DNA of 32,000 nucleotides from Ferroglobus placidus DSM 10642. Its GTDB lineage: Archaea > Halobacteriota > Archaeoglobi > Archaeoglobales > Archaeoglobaceae. The notes beneath the pieces were generated by a model. The model was not told the DNA's origin, ran no database searches, and saw only the letters and a program-made list of their open reading frames with translations. The stretch is taken from positions 210,001 to 242,000 of the forward strand of contig NC_013849.1 in assembly GCF_000025505.1 (NCBI RefSeq), read 5' to 3'. Below are positions 15,280 through 24,860 of this stretch, piece after piece. Numbering within the stretch: the stretch's first letter is position 1; each line of letters starts with the position of its first letter. Made by a program: the position numbers and the translations under genes.

Positions 15280-15336
15280 CATGCGGGGGGAGGGATTTGA
15301 ACCCTCGAACCCCTACGGGACGGGACCCTGAATCCC
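15280..15336 (-). repeat. attL: orphan copy of the 3' portion of tRNA-Leu (57-bp direct repeat)
   Basis: The sequence catgcggggggagggatttgaaccctcgaacccctacgggacgggaccctgaatccc is identical to 17906-17962. Confidence 0.9.
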
Positions 15337-15467
15337 TCAGAGTTTAATTTTTCTTCATTCTGAATGCTTTTTATGGCTTCTTCTAAGAGTTGGGAGAGCT
15401 TTATCTTATTCTGTTTCGCCCACTCCAGTAATTCAGCGTCGATATACGCACTCGTTCTTTTCTTCAT
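15283..15467 (-). pseudogene. Int(N): N-terminal fragment of the partitioned SSV-type integrase (RHH-like 44 aa plus att-encoded peptide)
   Basis: The fragment reads MKKRTSAYIDAELLEWAKQNKIKLSQLLEEAIKSIQNEEKLNSE, then the att-encoded GFRVPSRRGSRVQIPPPA. ATG 15467 has GGAGTGAT upstream and a TTTATATA box at ~15488-15495. The ORF then reads out into flanking DNA. Confidence 0.7.
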
Positions 15468-15662: not shown

Positions 15663-15938
15663 TCACTCCCAACGCTCAAGAACACTCCGAAGAGTTTCTA
15701 TATCATTTCTGGCAATCAAATCGAGAATTATCGAGGTTTTTCGAATGTAATAGCTAATTTCTGCCAAGATGCAAAGCTGTAAATTCTCCCTGCAGTTCGG
15801 AGCTTCATACTGGCATGACTTGCAGACTCCGTTCAAGAAAGAATTGATTCCTCTTGGTTTTCTCTCCGATGTTTCTTGCTTCATTTCAAACTCCCCAAGT
15901 TCTAACATGTAACACAAATCGCTTCCAGAAAAACTCAT
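15663..15938 (-). CDS. hypothetical Cys-rich protein (91 aa)
   Basis: Start ATG 15938 overlaps the upstream gene's stop as ATGA (15935-15938). It contains CKSCQYEAPNCRENLQLC. No family was recognised. Confidence 0.4.
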   Translation of the reverse strand: MSFSGSDLCYMLELGEFEMKQETSERKPRGINSFLNGVCKSCQYEAPNCRENLQLCILAEISYYIRKTSIILDLIARNDIETLRSVLERWE

Positions 15939-16408
15939 TTGATTGTTTTCAACATTCTTTTGATTCTTCCTCTCCATCTTTCGACGATCCCTCTAACATC
16001 GTGCTTAACCGGCATTTTACTCGTCCCATATATCAGGTATTTGGCATACTCCACATTGTTGCTGATTGCATACTTCAGTTTTCCAAGCTTCGTTGAAACC
16101 CACGCAGCTCTGTATCTTCCAGTTCTCACCGGAGCGGTAGCTTTTATCTCTCCTTCGAGTTCGAAAACAGCCATCTGTAGCTTCTTATCGACCTTATCTG
16201 GGAGTGACTTTTTGAGATCCTCCAGATTTTTGATTGTTCTATCAAGCCCTTCGATTCTGATAGAAATTCCCAGAGATGTTCTCGATCCAGCTACTGGAAC
16301 CGATCCAGATGTACCAACTCGTGTAGAAGTCCTCCCTCTCGCTTTAAGTCTTCTCGCTGTACTCAACCCGATGCGTCTCCCCACCCTTCGTACCCACATC
16401 GAACACAT
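15935..16408 (-). CDS. HK97-gp10-like head-tail (tail completion) protein homologue
   Basis: The segment IEGLDRTIKNLEDLKKSLPDKVDKKLQMAVFELEGEIKATAPVRTGRYRAAWVS...NNVEYAKYLIYGTSKMP matches the HK97-gp10_like pattern recalled from memory (EGLdel...L, aPvdTGxLrxS, veYAxyvEfGTskm). The N-terminal ~50 aa are Arg/Ser/Thr-rich. Confidence 0.6.
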   Translation of the reverse strand: MCSMWVRRVGRRIGLSTARRLKARGRTSTRVGTSGSVPVAGSRTSLGISIRIEGLDRTIKNLEDLKKSLPDKVDKKLQMAVFELEGEIKATAPVRTGRYRAAWVSTKLGKLKYAISNNVEYAKYLIYGTSKMPVKHDVRGIVERWRGRIKRMLKTIK

Positions 16409-16507
16409 TTCGCAGGCATTTTCAACACCTCTTTAATCTCTTTATTTTCTTTACATTCTTTACTATGAAACGTAAAGTATTTAAAATTTTCGTTACTTAC
16501 TTTACTT

Positions 16508-16663
16508 ATGGAAAGCGATGAAAGAATCCTTGATGTTGCCACGCTGAGTTCAAAATACCAGATAACTATAACAAAAGCGATTCGAGAGAAGCTTGGACTT
16601 ACGGCAGGGGATAGAGTCGTGTTTGTTGAGAAAGATGGCGAAATCATCCTGAGAAAAGCATGA
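16508..16663 (+). CDS. AbrB/SpoVT/MazE-type antitoxin-like DNA-binding protein (51 aa)
   Basis: This gene is not in the ORF track because it is under 60 aa. Manual translation gives MESDERILDVATLSSKYQITITKAIREKLGLTAGDRVVFVEKDGEIILRKA, which fits the swapped-hairpin AbrB pattern (SKYQITIPKxIRExLGLxxGD). Its stop overlaps the next gene's ATG (ATGA at 16660-16663). Confidence 0.7.
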   Translation: MESDERILDVATLSSKYQITITKAIREKLGLTAGDRVVFVEKDGEIILRKA

Positions 16664-16926
16664 AGTTCACAAATCACATAAGAGAACGAATGCTGGAATA
16701 CAATATCTCAGAGCAGGAGGTCTTAGAAGCCATCAAAGAGCCTGACAGCCTCTACCTTGATGTCCTGACTGGCCGCTTTGTGGCGGTTAAGAAAACTGGA
16801 AGCAAAGCCATTGTTGCGGTGTTTGAAAAGAACGATGAAACCACATTGATCACCGTATTCCCGACCAGCAAGATTAATAAGGTGGTTGAGAGTAGAATTA
16901 GGAGTGGAAGGTGGATCGAGATATGA
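16660..16926 (+). CDS. DUF4258-family protein (putative toxin, BECR/RNase-like)
   Basis: The sequence FTNHIRERMLEYNISEQEVLEAI...AIVAVFEKNDETTLITVFP fits the DUF4258 pattern (ftxHaxeRmxeRgIsxeev). Confidence 0.6.
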   Translation: MKFTNHIRERMLEYNISEQEVLEAIKEPDSLYLDVLTGRFVAVKKTGSKAIVAVFEKNDETTLITVFPTSKINKVVESRIRSGRWIEI

Positions 16927-17135
16927 TGGTTAAATATGATAGAGAGGCCGACATTCTGTATCTGAAATTTTCAGACACGAAACCGGTAGATTCGGACATG
17001 CTGAATGACGATGTAGTTGTCTCCTTCGATGAGAACGGCGAGATTGTAGGTATGGAAATCTGGAGGGCTAAGGAGCTGATTCTGCCCGCTTTCCTGCAGT
17101 ATCTGAAAGAAATGCGGGAGGTTGTTAAGAGGTAG
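16923..17135 (+). CDS. DUF2283-family protein (putative cognate antitoxin/partner)
   Basis: The sequence MMVKYDREADILYLKFSD...VVVSFDENGEIVGMEIWRAKEL fits the DUF2283 pattern (YDxEADxLYi...dGxivGiEi). ATG 16923 overlaps the upstream stop (ATGA at 16923-16926). The track's GTG 16911 start is less likely. Confidence 0.6.
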   Translation: MMVKYDREADILYLKFSDTKPVDSDMLNDDVVVSFDENGEIVGMEIWRAKELILPAFLQYLKEMREVVKR

Positions 17136-17138
17136 TTT

Positions 17139-17962
17139 TCATTTCAGAATCCTGAAGTCCTTCCAATACCTCTCATAGATCTTCTTCAACTCTTCTTCAT
17201 CCTGAAAGTCATAGTGATTCAAGTCCACATCGCCCCTCAGCGAATGACCCATGAGGATCTTTTTCACGGCGGTTGGCATACCCAACCTGTCGCTCTGCTG
17301 TGAGAAGAACTTACGCATGTGCTTGAGCCTGAGTTTTGAATTCAACTTACTGAAATGATAATGGATCGACTTCTTCGAGAAAAGCCGTTTCGGTTTCGTG
17401 CTGAGGTACTCGATTAAAGCTTCTTTAGCCTCCTGGGATATAGATCGTCCTTCTCTCGATGTCGATATTTTCAGGCTTAAGGCGGTAAACCTCCTCAGAA
17501 CGCATCCCTGATGTTGCCGCCAGCAATACGGCGGCTTTTAGCTTCAGATTGTATGGATAAGTTAGGGTTTCAATTTCTTTTATCAGATCTCTTATGTCTT
17601 CAACCTTAATAACAGCTTTCTTTCTCCGTTTAGGGATCTTCGGCAGTTCAATACTCTTTGCTAATGGATAATTTATAAATTTCAAGAATGCTCGGATATA
17701 GATAGTCAACCTCCGGGCGTAACGATGGGAGTACTTGGATTTTATTTCGTTTATATAAATAATAATAGCGTCATCTTTAAGATTAAAATTCAGCCATTTT
17801 AATAATTTTTCAGCTGAGCTGATATATCTTCTCTTTTCGTCGTTTGAGATATCTTTAAGTTGAATATGTTTTTTAAAACTCTCAAATTTTTTAAGAATCT
17901 GATCGCATGCGGGGGGAGGGATTTGAACCCTCGAACCCCTACGGGACGGGACCCTGAATCCC
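17139..17962 (-). pseudogene. Int(C): C-terminal catalytic fragment of the SSV-type tyrosine integrase, with an internal frameshift near 17425-17430
   Basis: The reading frame leaves the att repeat (GFRVPSRRGSRVQIPPPA) into CDQILKKFESF...ATSGMRSEEVYRL...IYIPGG and then hits a stop. The frame offset by one nucleotide continues AKEALIEYLSTKPKRLFSKKSIHYHFSKLNSKLRLKHMRKFF...MGHSLRGDVDLNHYD. These are tyrosine-recombinase-like Arg, KHxR, GH and Tyr regions. Confidence 0.8.
17906..17962 (-). repeat. attR: 57-bp direct repeat forming the 3' portion of the intact tRNA-Leu
   Basis: It is identical to 15280-15336. Confidence 0.9.
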
Positions 17963-17992
17963 GCGCCTTTGTCCTGGCTCGGCAACCCCCGC
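17908..17992 (-). tRNA. tRNA-Leu (anticodon CAG), class II with a long variable arm
   Basis: The minus strand reads GCGGGGGUUGCCGAGCCAGGACAAAGGCGCGGGAUUCAGGGUCCCGUCCCGUAGGGGUUCGAGGGUUCAAAUCCCUCCCCCCGCA. Hand folding gives a 7-bp acceptor stem, anticodon stem CGGGA/UCCCG, loop UUCAGGG, a long variable arm and a T-arm GAGGG-UUCAAAU-CCCUC. No CCA is encoded and there is no intron. Confidence 0.9.
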
Positions 17993-18040
17993 AGTTTTTA
18001 TGATTTACTTAACTACCGATTAAATAAGTTTGTGGTAATT

Positions 18041-20377
18041 TCACGCGATCTCCCAGTTCCTCATCAGGAACTTTCTGACGTCTTCAGATTCGACCCAGCC
18101 CTTTTCAATATCTCTCACGATCTCAACTATCTTCTTCACCTGCTCCTCAATTTTCTCTTTAATTTCCCCTTCTATCTCCTCTAAAAGTAACGTTATTGCG
18201 GCGAGCGGATTCTTTATTTTGTCAACGAGAGTCGCCAAGGTTACTATGTTGTCTTCAATTTGCTTCAAAGCTTTTATCCTCATCTCAAACAACCTCGCTT
18301 CTTGAATCGCTATTCCCAACTGACCGGCAAGAGTTTCCAAGAATTTGAACTTTTCCTTATCCTTTTCGCTAAAAGTTTTTCGAGTTGCCGCTAAAAGCAA
18401 ACCTACCTTCTCTCCCCTCGAAACCAACGGGATTGTCGCATAGCTTTTCAGTCCAGCTTTCAGGAATTCTACGTCAAGCTTCGTCATTTCTCCAAGTTCG
18501 AGAACGTTTTCAACGACTTTACTTTCCACCCCAGAAAAGAGTTCGGGGTTTAAATCGATTTTAACATCGGAATCGTGAACAACAAAGGGATCTTCTCCTA
18601 AGACTAAACAAGCTAAAAGATCAAAGCCGAGTTTTCTTCTTGCAAGTTGCAAAGCTTCGTAAATGGCTTCCTTCAACTCCTTGCCAGAAAGGATAGCGTG
18701 ATCGATTGAGCGGAGAATTTCCAGTCTTTCAAGAGCTTCTTTGATTTCCCTTTCATAGTTCTTTTTCTCTGTCACATCCTCGATTATGTTCAAAAAAGCG
18801 TAGGGCTTGTTATCTTTCGTGAGTAAAACTGGAAACACGTTTATCCACCTTTCTTCTCCGTCAACTTTTATTCTGAATTCGTAAACACCACTTTCTCCTC
18901 TTAAACCTCTGTAGAACATTTCTATGGCTCTGGAAAGTTCTTCCTCGTCGAAAATTCCTAAATCGATCCACTTAATTCCAATTACTTCTTCTCTTTTCAT
19001 CTTTACCATTTTTAGCGCAGCATCGTTGCAGTCAATAATTCTCATATCAGTTCCAGCGACGACTATTCCGAGGGGTGAGAATTCGAAAATGCTTCTGTAC
19101 AGCTCCTCACTCTCTTTCAGTTTTCTCTCAACTTCCCTAAGCTTCGTTACATCGAGCATCGATAAAACAACGCACCCGAAATCGGGGACTGGCGTTGCCG
19201 TTACAAAGACAATCCTTTCTTCACCGTCCTTCCTTAAGATGCTCACTTCCAAGTTCTCAGGAACGTAACTTGGATCGTAAAAGGCAAGTTTGTAAATTCT
19301 TAAAATTTCTTCTCTGTCGCTTTCGGAAAAAATTTCAACGAATTGTCTACCAACCAACTCTTCCTTACCATACCCGCTCAAATTTTCAGCGGCTTTGTTT
19401 GCGTAAATTATCCTTTCGTTACTCACCACGATAATTCCGGTTTTTGAACTTTCCACAATTGCCCTGTAAAGTTTCTCAAGCTTTTTTCTCTCTTCAGCCT
19501 CCCTTATTGATGTAACACCAAAAGAGACGACTTCTGCAACTTCTTTCAAAAGACCTACTTCATCCTCATCGAAAGCGTCCTTTTCAAAGGCGTAAATGTT
19601 GAGAGCTCCAATTACTTCGCCCTTCACTTTTAAAGGTAAAGCTATACTCGAACGATAACCTTTCTTTAAAGCCTTCTCCCTCCACGGAGCGAATCTCTGA
19701 TCCTTATCTATTTCCCTCACGATAACAATTTCTCCCGTTCTTATCGCAGTTCCCGTAGGACCTTTGCCAGTTTCACTCTCGTCCCAGGTAATCTTAATTT
19801 CGTAAGCGTAATCTCCCTCTCCAGCCTTTGCAACCGGCTGAACGCTCTTGTCTTCCTTCTTGTAACCAACCCAAGCGTAAGCGTATCCTCCCTCTTTAAC
19901 TATTATCTCACAAACGGCTTTGAGAAGAGCTTTCTCATCATCGATTTTGCTCACAGCCTGACTAACTTTGCTGAGAACCCTTAAAGCCCTCTCAACTCTT
20001 CTCCTTTTAGCTTCTTCTTCAGCGAGAACACCCTCGTAAATTTCAAAAATTTTATAGAAAATTTCAGGCTGTACGAAAGCTAATTTTACGATCATTTCTT
20101 GGGCTTCTTCACTTTCCTTCTTTTCCATTATCAGTTGAAGGAGCAATTTTATTCTTCTCGCAATATCTTTTATCTTTACTCCTTTTTTCAAAACATCTTC
20201 GACAAAAGCGTCATCAATCTCACTTACAATTTCTTCCGGGCTTCTCTTCCCTGAAAGAACCTCAAAAGCGATCTTTTTAACAAAGGTTATGTACTCCTCT
20301 CTAAATTCAGGAGGAATTTCTTTTCGAATTTCGTTCGTCCACTCCTCCAAAAGTTCGTTTATTATACCTCCATCCAT
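18041..20377 (-). CDS. multidomain cytoplasmic sensor: GAF-PAS-PAS-GAF with a C-terminal His-less DHp-like helix; no HATPase domain
   Basis: The 778-aa product has a first GAF-like block (GYAYAWVGY...SSIALPLKVKGEVIGALNIYA). Two PAS-like blocks follow (LYRAIVESSKTGIIVV..., ELYRSIFEFSPLGIVV...). A second GAF-like block is present (ATIPLVSRGEKVGLLLAA...LAGQLGIAIQEARLFE). The C-terminus VDKIKNPLAAI resembles an H-box with Asp in place of His. Confidence 0.7.
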   Translation of the reverse strand: MDGGIINELLEEWTNEIRKEIPPEFREEYITFVKKIAFEVLSGKRSPEEIVSEIDDAFVEDVLKKGVKIKDIARRIKLLLQLIMEKKESEEAQEMIVKLAFVQPEIFYKIFEIYEGVLAEEEAKRRRVERALRVLSKVSQAVSKIDDEKALLKAVCEIIVKEGGYAYAWVGYKKEDKSVQPVAKAGEGDYAYEIKITWDESETGKGPTGTAIRTGEIVIVREIDKDQRFAPWREKALKKGYRSSIALPLKVKGEVIGALNIYAFEKDAFDEDEVGLLKEVAEVVSFGVTSIREAEERKKLEKLYRAIVESSKTGIIVVSNERIIYANKAAENLSGYGKEELVGRQFVEIFSESDREEILRIYKLAFYDPSYVPENLEVSILRKDGEERIVFVTATPVPDFGCVVLSMLDVTKLREVERKLKESEELYRSIFEFSPLGIVVAGTDMRIIDCNDAALKMVKMKREEVIGIKWIDLGIFDEEELSRAIEMFYRGLRGESGVYEFRIKVDGEERWINVFPVLLTKDNKPYAFLNIIEDVTEKKNYEREIKEALERLEILRSIDHAILSGKELKEAIYEALQLARRKLGFDLLACLVLGEDPFVVHDSDVKIDLNPELFSGVESKVVENVLELGEMTKLDVEFLKAGLKSYATIPLVSRGEKVGLLLAATRKTFSEKDKEKFKFLETLAGQLGIAIQEARLFEMRIKALKQIEDNIVTLATLVDKIKNPLAAITLLLEEIEGEIKEKIEEQVKKIVEIVRDIEKGWVESEDVRKFLMRNWEIA

Positions 20378-23516: not shown

Positions 23517-24527
23517 ATGGCAGCCGTAACAGGACAAGTTCCCCAGTGGAAAAGACAGGCTGTTGAGGAAATCAAAAATCTCCTTAAAAGTTATCCAGTC
23601 GTGGCTATAGTCGGATTTAGGGGAGTTCCTTCACCCCAGTTTCAAAAAATAAGAAGGGACTTCAGAGAATTTGCAAGAATAAGAGTGGTGAAGAACAGCC
23701 TCTTGGAGAGAGCCCTCGACGAACTTGGTGGAGACTACGTAAAACTGAAGGACTTCATAGAAGACCAGACAGCAATAGTAGTAAGCGAAATGAACCCCTT
23801 CAAACTCTACAAAAAGCTCGAAGAGACGAAGGTTCCTTCTCCGCTGAAACCGAATCAGGTTTCTCCAGTAGATGTCGTAGTTGAAGCAGGTCCGACGAAA
23901 TTCCCTCCCGGTCCGATACTCGGTGAACTTCAAGCTGGAGGAATTCCAGCGGCGATAGAAAGAGGCAAAGTTGTTGTCAAGAATACCGTTACCGTTGTCA
24001 GAGCTGGAGAAGTCGTTAGACCAGAAGTTGCGAGAGCCTTGCAGCTTCTCGACGTTAAACCGATAAAGATAGGTTTGGAAACGAGAGCAATAATGGAGAA
24101 GGGAATAATCTTTACTCCAGAAGATTTAGCAATAGACGAAGCGAAAGTCTTCGAAGAATTCGTTGATGCTGCAAGAAGAGCACTGAACTTGGCTGTTAAC
24201 GCCGCATACGTGACTGAAGAGACGGCTGAGATTTTACTGGCGAAGGCTTTCATCGACGCGAAGAACCTTGCCATCAACGCTCTGATATTCGAGAAGGACG
24301 TGATGCCAGAAATACTTGCAAAAGCGTATTCAGAAATGCTCGCTCTTGCTTCTCTCCTGCCTGAAGATGCCCTCGACGAAGAGCTGAAGAAGCTTTTGGA
24401 AGGCAGAAAAGTTGAAGTTAAGGAAGAAGTGAAGGAAGAGAAGAAGGAGGAAGAGGAGAAGGAAGAGGAGGAAGAGGAAAAAGCTGAGGAGGAGGCTCTC
24501 GAAGGTTTAGGTGCTTTGTTTGGTTGA
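23517..24527 (+). CDS. rplP0: 50S ribosomal stalk protein P0 (uL10)
   Basis: 336 aa. The N-terminus reads PQWKRQAVEEIKNLL...VVAIVGFRGVPSPQFQKIRR. It has an acidic K/E tail ending [12 protein letters not shown]. Confidence 0.95.
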   Translation: MAAVTGQVPQWKRQAVEEIKNLLKSYPVVAIVGFRGVPSPQFQKIRRDFREFARIRVVKNSLLERALDELGGDYVKLKDFIEDQTAIVVSEMNPFKLYKKLEETKVPSPLKPNQVSPVDVVVEAGPTKFPPGPILGELQAGGIPAAIERGKVVVKNTVTVVRAGEVVRPEVARALQLLDVKPIKIGLETRAIMEKGIIFTPEDLAIDEAKVFEEFVDAARRALNLAVNAAYVTEETAEILLAKAFIDAKNLAINALIFEKDVMPEILAKAYSEMLALASLLPEDALDEELKKLLEGRKVEVKEEVKEEKKEEEEKEEEEEEKAEEEALEGLGALFG

Positions 24528-24545
24528 GAGGTGAGGTGAATGGGA

Positions 24546-24860
24546 ATGGAGTATGTGTATGCTGCTTTGCTGCTGCATTCAGCTGGAAAGGAGATAAACG
24601 AGGAGAACGTTAAGGCTGTACTCGAAGCTGCTGGAATAGAGGTGAACGAAGCGAGAGTCAAGGCTCTCGTGACCGCTTTGGAGGGCATAAACATAGACGA
24701 GGCTATAAGCAAAGCCGCTTTCGTAGCCGCTCCGGCAGCGGCTCCAGCTGCTCCAGCTGAGGAGGCTAAGGAAGAGGAGAAGAAGGAAGAGAAGAAAGAG
24801 GAAGAGGAAGAAGTGAAGGAGGAAGAGGTCCTCGAAGGACTCGGAGCACTCTTCGGATGA
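24546..24860 (+). CDS. rpl12: 50S ribosomal stalk protein P1 (aL12)
   Basis: It starts [30 protein letters not shown], has an Ala/Pro hinge and an acidic tail ending [12 protein letters not shown]. The track starts at ATG 24540. ATG 24546 has better spacing from GAGGTGAGGTGA. Confidence 0.9.

Follow-up and report, generated by a model that had tools for sequence, protein, structure and literature searches.

Gene structure and promoter of the three-gene unit

Three small plus-strand genes lie head to tail at positions 16508-17135 of the window, by which we mean the whole 32,000-nucleotide stretch of Ferroglobus placidus DSM 10642 DNA analysed here (contig NC_013849.1, positions 210,001 to 242,000). 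The first gene (16508-16663) encodes an AbrB-type protein of 51 residues, a stand-alone swapped-hairpin DNA-binding domain; the second (16660-16926) encodes an 88-residue DUF4258 protein, and the third (16923-17135) a DUF2283 protein of 70 residues counted from its ATG. Judging from sequence comparisons, we consider it on balance probable that the three genes are a virus-derived operon in the remnant of a dead provirus, combining an AbrB regulator (a proposed autorepressor), a DUF4258 toxin (proposed to be of the BECR-fold RNase type), and a DUF2283 protein acting as antitoxin or immunity protein.

An earlier note on this DNA had described the three genes as chained by ATGA stop/start overlaps at 16660-16663 and 16923-16926, and the open reading frame (ORF) listing agrees with this reading of the sequence. 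An in-frame GTG at 16911 lies upstream of the DUF2283 ATG, while the homologues begin at the ATG. The family assignments made in the same note also stand, with all profile matches above the curated cut-offs. The first protein matches both Pfam PF04014, MazE_antitoxin/AbrB (2.5e-11; 43.8 bits, cut-off 24.7), and NCBIfam TIGR01439, AbrB (4.8e-14; 51.8 bits, cut-off 28.3). The second matches Pfam PF14076, DUF4258 (1.3e-08; 35.5 bits, cut-off 25), and the third Pfam PF10049, DUF2283 (6.5e-20; 71.5 bits, cut-off 23). The abrB gene differs from its Geoglobus orthologue by 17 synonymous and 5 non-synonymous changes. Because these substitutions are mostly synonymous (ratio of non-synonymous to synonymous rates, dN/dS, ~0.06), the 51-residue frame is, by this measure, a real gene, and it is also predicted by other gene callers. 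An antisense ORF at 16363-16677 was rejected as a gene, the substitution pattern matching the plus-strand frame.

Almost all of the ~25 related loci keep the TATGA junction between DUF4258 and DUF2283. A Shine-Dalgarno-like GGAAGGTGG lies within the C-terminal codons of the toxin gene and is invariant in the DNA alignment; we infer that it provides a good, even strong, internal ribosome-binding site for DUF2283. At the other junction, the ATGA overlap of abrB and DUF4258 is present in the window and in one metagenome contig (L001), with a 12-nt spacer instead in the Geoglobus acetivorans provirus (L002), a second metagenome contig (L027), and a locus of a Geoglobus metagenome-assembled genome (L013).

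Between abrB and the leftward gene lie 88 nt (16420-16507) that form a putative divergent promoter/operator region. It contains hexamers of the CTTTAC type in a 9-nt phase at 16440, 16449, 16458, 16491, and 16500, and an inverted GTAAAG at 16472-16477. A TATA-like box, TATTTAAA, is found at 16478-16485, flanked by a 21-nt direct repeat. Since only ~23-30 nt separate this box from the abrB ATG, with no ribosome-binding site in that interval, the sequence suggests a leaderless abrB transcript, the assignment of the TATA box being equally tentative. Matches to CTTTACNNNCTTTAC with at most one mismatch number three in the 32-kb window, all of them in the abrB promoter (0.37 expected). Likewise, the phased motif has three matches in 20 kb of the Geoglobus provirus (L046; 0.06 expected) and four in the related contig L028 (0.12 expected), again all in the abrB promoter.

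The promoter region is 96.6% identical between the window and Geoglobus across its 88 nt, whereas synonymous-site divergence reaches 49% in abrB, 73% in DUF4258, and 85% in DUF2283. The promoter thus appears to be under strong constraint, and the graded increase of synonymous divergence points to recombination within the cassette. The CTTTAC design is kept in front of AbrB orthologues, with phased hexamers 5' of the TATA-like box, an inverted GTAAAG abutting the box, and further CTTTAC copies between the box and the ATG. The motif co-occurs with AbrB across orthologues that are 60-92% identical.

The AlphaFold2 model of the DUF4258 protein has a predicted local distance difference test score (pLDDT) of 95.7 and an alpha-alpha-beta4-alpha-beta topology, with two helices leading into a sheet of four strands, after which come another helix and a short strand. 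Among 46 DUF4258 relatives, profile matches were obtained to DUF4258 (42 proteins), BrnT_toxin (9), PBECR2 (9), and PBECR3 (5). The window protein has sub-threshold PBECR2 matches and does not reach the BrnT profile. It carries the family-invariant residues H6, D34, and T65 and the nearly invariant W85, along with T4, S70, and R84, which are invariant in the archaeal clade. The DUF2283 model (pLDDT 91.7) shows five strands and a long C-terminal helix. Pfam, NCBIfam, and fold searches detected no DNA-binding domain in it, which is not proof of absence. PDB sequence searches with DUF4258 and DUF2283 returned nothing, and PADLOC gave no defence-system match. Rfam matched the nearby tRNA and its attachment-site (att) fragment and nothing else, and thus no known RNA antitoxin.

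Related loci and the conserved DUF4258-DUF2283 pair

Related loci were gathered by exact-protein look-ups, a DUF2283-seeded genome scan, and a DUF4258-seeded metagenome scan, and all their reading frames were classified with hidden Markov models built for this analysis. The survey covers fairly close archaeal relatives, and the DUF4258 scan, based on a narrow alignment, reaches close relatives only. DUF2283 has many close relatives, of 63-84% identity, in Archaeoglobales, Hydrothermarchaeota, and Freyarchaeota. DUF4258 diverges faster than DUF2283: a word-indexed search gave two relatives, and an exhaustive search was needed. The word-indexed homologue search also yielded few relatives of AbrB (three). 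A tblastn search against plasmid and phage collections gave no match.

DUF4258 followed by DUF2283, both intact, was found in about 24 distinct archaeal loci, nearly always with the TATGA junction, and DUF2283 lies directly downstream in all 13 of the DUF4258-seeded metagenome loci. The pattern of loss runs in one direction. DUF2283 is kept with DUF4258 lost or broken in six loci, and among these close archaeal relatives not one locus has DUF4258 without DUF2283. Beside the kept DUF2283 gene, DUF4258 is absent in L003-5 and L018, internally deleted in L017 and L021, fragmentary in L022, and frameshifted in L043. Such one-way loss is what toxin-antitoxin dependence predicts. Distances between toxins and between antitoxins are correlated (r = 0.86, 22 loci). 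DUF4258 and DUF2283 are thus adjacent, co-oriented, coupled, and co-inherited, as a type II toxin-antitoxin pair requires. Of the tripartite toxin-antitoxin module suggested in the earlier note, the order and coupling of the three genes were borne out, but what these loci conserve as a system is two genes, the DUF4258-DUF2283 pair, of which the trio is a lineage-specific elaboration.

An intact abrB gene precedes the pair in four loci, namely the window, the G. acetivorans provirus (L002, identical to L046; CP009552.1), and the metagenome contigs L001 and L027, so that the AbrB-DUF4258-DUF2283 order recurs in three loci besides the window. Truncated abrB genes occur in two further loci. Among loci of Geoglobus metagenome-assembled genomes, L013/L033 lacks the promoter as well as the first two-thirds of abrB, with both downstream genes intact; L017 shares this truncation and has also lost the body of DUF4258, with DUF2283 kept. 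The conservation of the 51-residue ORF therefore holds for the closest loci but does not extend to most related loci, which have no abrB gene. The remaining loci have either nothing upstream of the pair or an ATGA-coupled Cys-rich ORF of 39-53 residues.

This Cys-rich ORF (CPFMGAISKCHKEKCMHW, then C) has no Pfam match and recurs 5' of DUF4258, at L009 2625-2744, L015 2083-2244, L036/L037 1343-1504, and L034 952-1107. It is ATGA-coupled to the toxin gene in all but L034, and may be an alternative small regulator. In L034 it lies instead upstream of a 130-residue Phage_Mu_F-like ORF (1109-1501; 3.9e-12) that ends exactly at the DUF4258 start codon, an arrangement that recalls the MuF-linked polymorphic toxins of temperate phages. 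A very different 51-residue AbrB-domain gene (L035 1223-1378; Pfam 4.2e-10) is located 122 nt 5' of another DUF4258-DUF2283 pair, reflecting either independent recruitment or chance adjacency. At about 920-1250 of L018, 5' of the orphan DUF2283 gene, the translation resembles by eye the C-terminus of a Doc/Fic-type toxin and is followed by a short helical ORF.

The AbrB protein itself is little more than its DNA-binding domain, PF04014 spanning residues 10-50 of 51. Its PDB sequence matches are the SpoVT N-domain and archaeal AbrB proteins of 48-54 residues (2l66/5itj). A weak match to PrlF_antitoxin (6.9e-05, below the cut-off) is confined to profile positions 2-42 of 99; positions 43-99 are unmatched, and the toxin-wrapping C-terminal extension of MazE/VapB/PrlF-type antitoxins is absent. 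Between the window and G. acetivorans, AbrB is 92% identical, the toxin 60%, and the antitoxin 81%. AbrB orthologues also occur in front of other genes. In L028 (5001-5923) an 80% identical orthologue precedes a gene for a 237-residue membrane-like protein, and in L029 (865-1206) and L030 (144-530) orthologues of 60% identity precede a gene for a Cys-rich protein. L001 and L028 have a leftward gene of 118-122 residues in common. As judged from these sequences, one provirus-associated lineage carries AbrB and its promoter as a portable regulatory front end.

The provirus remnant around the unit

The earlier note had placed the trio on a tRNA-integrated island. The integration is evident from a perfect 57-bp direct repeat, whose left copy (15280-15336) and right copy (17906-17962) represent the att sites; the right copy lies inside a minus-strand tRNA-Leu(CAG) gene (17907-17993), the 3' part of which is duplicated by the repeats. 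On the minus strand, the catalytic C-part of a tyrosine integrase (17139-17905; Pfam Phage_integrase 3.6e-06, Phage_integr_3 0.022) abuts the right repeat, and an N-part resembling ribbon-helix-helix (RHH)/CcdA-like proteins (15280-15467) was cut off from it by integration. When the sequence is joined across the 57-bp repeat, N-part and C-part form a single continuous integrase frame. By this arrangement the integrase is of the SSV type, with the att site inside the gene and integration splitting the N and C parts. It is inactivated by one frameshift between ~17345 and 17425. The element is not a functional one: its gene content marks the island as a dead provirus relic of ~2.6 kb, in which no transcription unit other than the three-gene cassette is intact.

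A minus-strand relic at 15935-16408 matches HK97 gp10-like tail-completion genes (PF04883, 3e-15; PHROG 5, 'tail completion or Neck1', 2e-17), and because of its presence the island is assigned a head-tailed virus ancestry. The N-terminal 45 residues of this relic look non-native, and an overlapping 104-residue minus-strand ORF (15663-15977), with no family match, looks like a head-tailed virus leftover. Directly leftward of the promoter region lies the stump of a divergent Zn-ribbon gene (16363-16419, minus strand), reduced to 18 codons (MPAKCVRCGYEGWGDASG) from a gene that encodes 62 residues in G. acetivorans. It forms the left edge of the shared cassette and, by comparison with that genome, marks the deletion that removed most of the provirus.

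A Logan contig (L050, SRR3923786_136) seen in five samples has a length of 2,629 nt, which is nearly exactly that of the island. Its interpretation as an excised circle was rejected, since the length equals 2,569 unique bases plus 30 per end; if k = 31 is assumed, the contig probably reflects the assembly breaking at the att repeats.

The G. acetivorans cassette lies inside a provirus of the HK97 type that encodes capsid, protease, MuF, portal, and terminase proteins as well as PCNA; the region is also present in IMG/VR as a 34-kb viral contig. Within the provirus the cassette is located between the replication-side and the packaging-side gene arrays, and is one of two plus-strand units in the ~16 kb of provirus genes examined, the other being a 130-residue ORF. 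In a blastn comparison of the island with the Geoglobus provirus, similarity is limited to window positions 16377-17107, that is, the cassette and the first Zn-ribbon codons. This confinement implies that the cassette moves between elements as a unit.

Outside the island, a 778-residue minus-strand ORF (18041-20377) lies directly beyond the tRNA gene, and its translation, read by eye, suggests a multi-domain sensor protein. Positions 24402-24840 contain GAA/GAG-rich repeats in a 12-nt phase, probably Glu/Lys-rich low-complexity stretches, in two plus-strand ORFs.

Function of the unit and relation to known systems

According to the reading that we prefer, the DUF4258-DUF2283 core would be a toxin-antitoxin pair of a type II-like kind, or else a toxin with its immunity protein. 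DUF4258 would be a small BECR-fold toxin, probably cleaving RNA. Translation of DUF2283 would start at the overlapping TATGA, served by a strong ribosome-binding site within the toxin gene, and the DUF2283 protein would bind and neutralise the toxin. The pair would be placed behind a portable unit composed of the 51-residue AbrB-type protein and the CTTTAC-repeat promoter around the TATA box. An AbrB dimer or tetramer bound to the CTTTAC repeats would hold down the abrB transcript, which is probably leaderless, and likely the divergent leftward promoter as well, thus setting the expression level of toxin and antitoxin and providing the DNA-binding function missing from the antitoxin. The third component is a DNA-binding-family protein encoded in the same operon, as three-component toxin-antitoxin systems with a dedicated regulator, such as paaR2-paaA2-parE2 and omega-epsilon-zeta, require. 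An addiction or defence role, as envisaged in the earlier note, would be conceivable for such a unit.

The literature agrees with part of this picture. DUF4258 has been assigned to the BECR/colicin-like RNase toxins (PMC11980606; bioRxiv 10.64898/2026.08.28.747851), is listed among BECR toxin families of unknown activity (Gerdes 2025), and is experimentally uncharacterised (PMC11980606). The 2026 preprint places it in the colicin-like branch instead and treats it as the same family as Ntox49 of polymorphic toxins (bioRxiv 10.64898/2026.08.28.747851).

Several observations weigh against the proposed roles. In 93% of pairs DUF4258 evolves faster than DUF2283, whereas the antitoxin is usually the faster partner. 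Foldseek searches of the PDB and BFVD with the DUF4258 and DUF2283 models gave nothing significant, only hints below significance to contact-dependent growth inhibition (CDI) toxin/immunity chains, colicin D, and phage minor capsid proteins; because no solved structure was matched significantly, the BECR assignment rests on profile matches and the literature. In the window toxin, codon 7 (16678-16680), directly after the invariant His6, encodes Ile, where more than 90% of the relatives have Ala, and the toxin may be attenuated by this change. The truncation in L013 took the promoter along with most of abrB, so the pair there may be silent, in which case this locus says little about the dispensability of AbrB. 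Finally, Gerdes 2025 gives the DUF4258 gene order as antitoxin-then-toxin, which would suit AbrB as the antitoxin.

That last possibility, in which AbrB would be the true DUF4258 antitoxin in the manner of PrlF-YhaV and DUF2283 a second antitoxin or an accessory factor, is in our view improbable and disfavoured. Beyond the published gene order, it could draw on the weak, sub-threshold PrlF_antitoxin match and on the overlap of the abrB stop with the toxin start in the window and L001. Yet that match stops short of the part of PrlF that AbrB lacks, a C-terminal extension; AbrB has hardly changed where the toxin has diverged by 40%; most DUF4258-DUF2283 loci have no AbrB gene; and orthologous AbrB proteins are found without any toxin gene. 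The obligate partnership or co-evolution with the toxin that is expected of a MazE/VapB/PrlF-type antitoxin was thus not found. The earlier note had offered two interpretations, one with a repressor, a toxin, and a neutraliser, and another with two antitoxins bracketing one toxin. The former fits the evidence better, and the latter agrees poorly with an AbrB protein that has no toxin-binding tail, is 92% identical where the toxin is 60%, is dispensable in most loci, and has orthologues that serve unrelated cargo elsewhere. As a domain-only protein, near-constant beside a diverging toxin, dispensable in most loci, and with orthologues in front of unrelated cargo, AbrB is best read as a regulator rather than a neutraliser. 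What it regulates may be more than the pair. A view that overlaps with the one we prefer, and to which we assign a low probability, is that AbrB is first of all the switch repressor of the provirus, silencing the leftward packaging and structural operon from the 88-nt region, the toxin-antitoxin pair being co-transcribed in lysogeny. The analogy is phage lambda, in which rexAB is co-transcribed with cI during lysogeny. In every case abrB and a leftward gene cluster do point away from each other, 82-133 nt apart, but the leftward neighbours differ between elements, and in the window the leftward gene is destroyed, yet promoter and abrB are intact. In G. acetivorans the leftward genes lead into terminase, with portal and capsid genes further on, on the same strand; the CTTTAC motif, however, is at no other promoter in 20 kb of that provirus, so AbrB would be a local rather than a global regulator. 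Also compatible with a switch is that the cargo behind abrB varies between related elements, a leftward gene being common to L001 and L028. If this less probable view were true, AbrB and its 88-nt promoter would be the genetic switch of an archaeal head-tailed provirus family and related elements, keeping the late operon off and providing a swappable cargo slot that is co-transcribed in lysogeny and filled by DUF4258-DUF2283 here, by a membrane protein in L028, and by a Cys-rich protein in L029. It would represent an archaeal counterpart of lambda cI-rexAB, and DUF2283, whose conservation is unusual in an antitoxin, would do more than simply neutralise the toxin.

The pair could also be something other than an intracellular addiction module, either a virion-tied (MuF-type) polymorphic-toxin/immunity pair or proteins with an unrelated, non-toxic function; we regard this as a doubtful option. 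In L034 the Phage_Mu_F-like ORF overlaps the DUF4258 start, but in the window and most other loci DUF4258 is free-standing, with 87-91 residues and no delivery domain. The overlap of DUF4258 with Ntox49 of polymorphic toxins and the lack of a DNA-binding domain in DUF2283, as in immunity proteins, would fit such a pair, as would the weak fold hints listed above, although every one of these is non-significant. Many loci, moreover, have an ordinary chromosomal context, beside tRNA-guanine transglycosylase, tRNA synthetase, and TldD-like genes.

Returning to the toxin-antitoxin operon with a dedicated AbrB regulator, its interest lies in several aspects. DUF4258 belongs to the small number of BECR toxin families that are still experimentally uncharacterised, and the papers that we found do not name a DUF2283 partner; our literature search, in an incomplete library, found no description of the DUF4258-DUF2283 pair or of the AbrB-DUF4258-DUF2283 trio. 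A 'DUF2283' in the FseA/QseM paper (ICEMlSym) is a regulator of a proteobacterial integrative and conjugative element, with no evident link to the family discussed here, and was set aside. The comparative data give a clear assignment of the predicted toxin, antitoxin, and regulator, and the loci form a natural decay series from the complete trio through loss of the regulator to loss of the toxin. The unit would illustrate how a toxin-immunity pair with a non-DNA-binding antitoxin comes under transcriptional control once it is placed behind a portable AbrB/operator unit, and the cassette offers a compact, sharply bounded candidate archaeal promoter/operator for AbrB-type repression in hyperthermophile viruses.

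Among known systems, DUF4258 has been found paired with HicB in slr1421/HicB of Synechocystis (PMC4963859) and fused to MqsA (PMC11980606). The window pair would resemble these in having DUF4258 as a type II toxin with exchangeable partners, but its partner is the downstream DUF2283. Like PrlF-YhaV, it has an AbrB-type gene directly 5' of a BECR-type toxin gene; PrlF, however, has roughly double the length and binds the toxin with its C-terminal half, whereas the window AbrB is a DNA-binding domain only. Sso7c4-type proteins have been described as general DNA-binding or chromatin-like. The window AbrB is like such stand-alone archaeal AbrB proteins of 48-54 residues (Sso7c4, PDB 2l66, 5itj) in its size and in its domain, as matched by sequence, but is associated with one particular repeat-rich promoter of mobile elements. 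With the type II system BrnT-BrnA of Brucella abortus, the pair shares a toxin gene that comes first, an antitoxin gene that comes second, and a small BECR RNase toxin, here a predicted one; the link is reinforced by the 9 of 46 DUF4258 relatives that match the BrnT profile, which the window protein itself does not reach. BrnA has its own RHH DNA-binding domain and autoregulates. This domain has no detected counterpart in DUF2283.

In paaR2-paaA2-parE2, a toxin of the BECR superfamily is combined with a small antitoxin that has no DNA-binding domain and with a separate helix-turn-helix (HTH) regulator. Such three-component toxin-antitoxin systems, described from cryptic prophages of E. coli O157:H7 (PMC7167474), appear by analogy to be the closest functional parallel of the window trio. 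Common to both are three genes, a BECR toxin (predicted in our case), a small antitoxin without DNA-binding domain, a dedicated regulator, and residence in a cryptic prophage. The window trio differs in its order of regulator, toxin, and antitoxin, in having a regulator of the AbrB fold rather than HTH and a DUF4258 toxin rather than ParE, and in that its AbrB regulator is found in a minority of loci. Taken together, these comparisons make it most likely that the trio is a modest variation on three-component toxin-antitoxin modules with a separate regulator and not a new kind of system.

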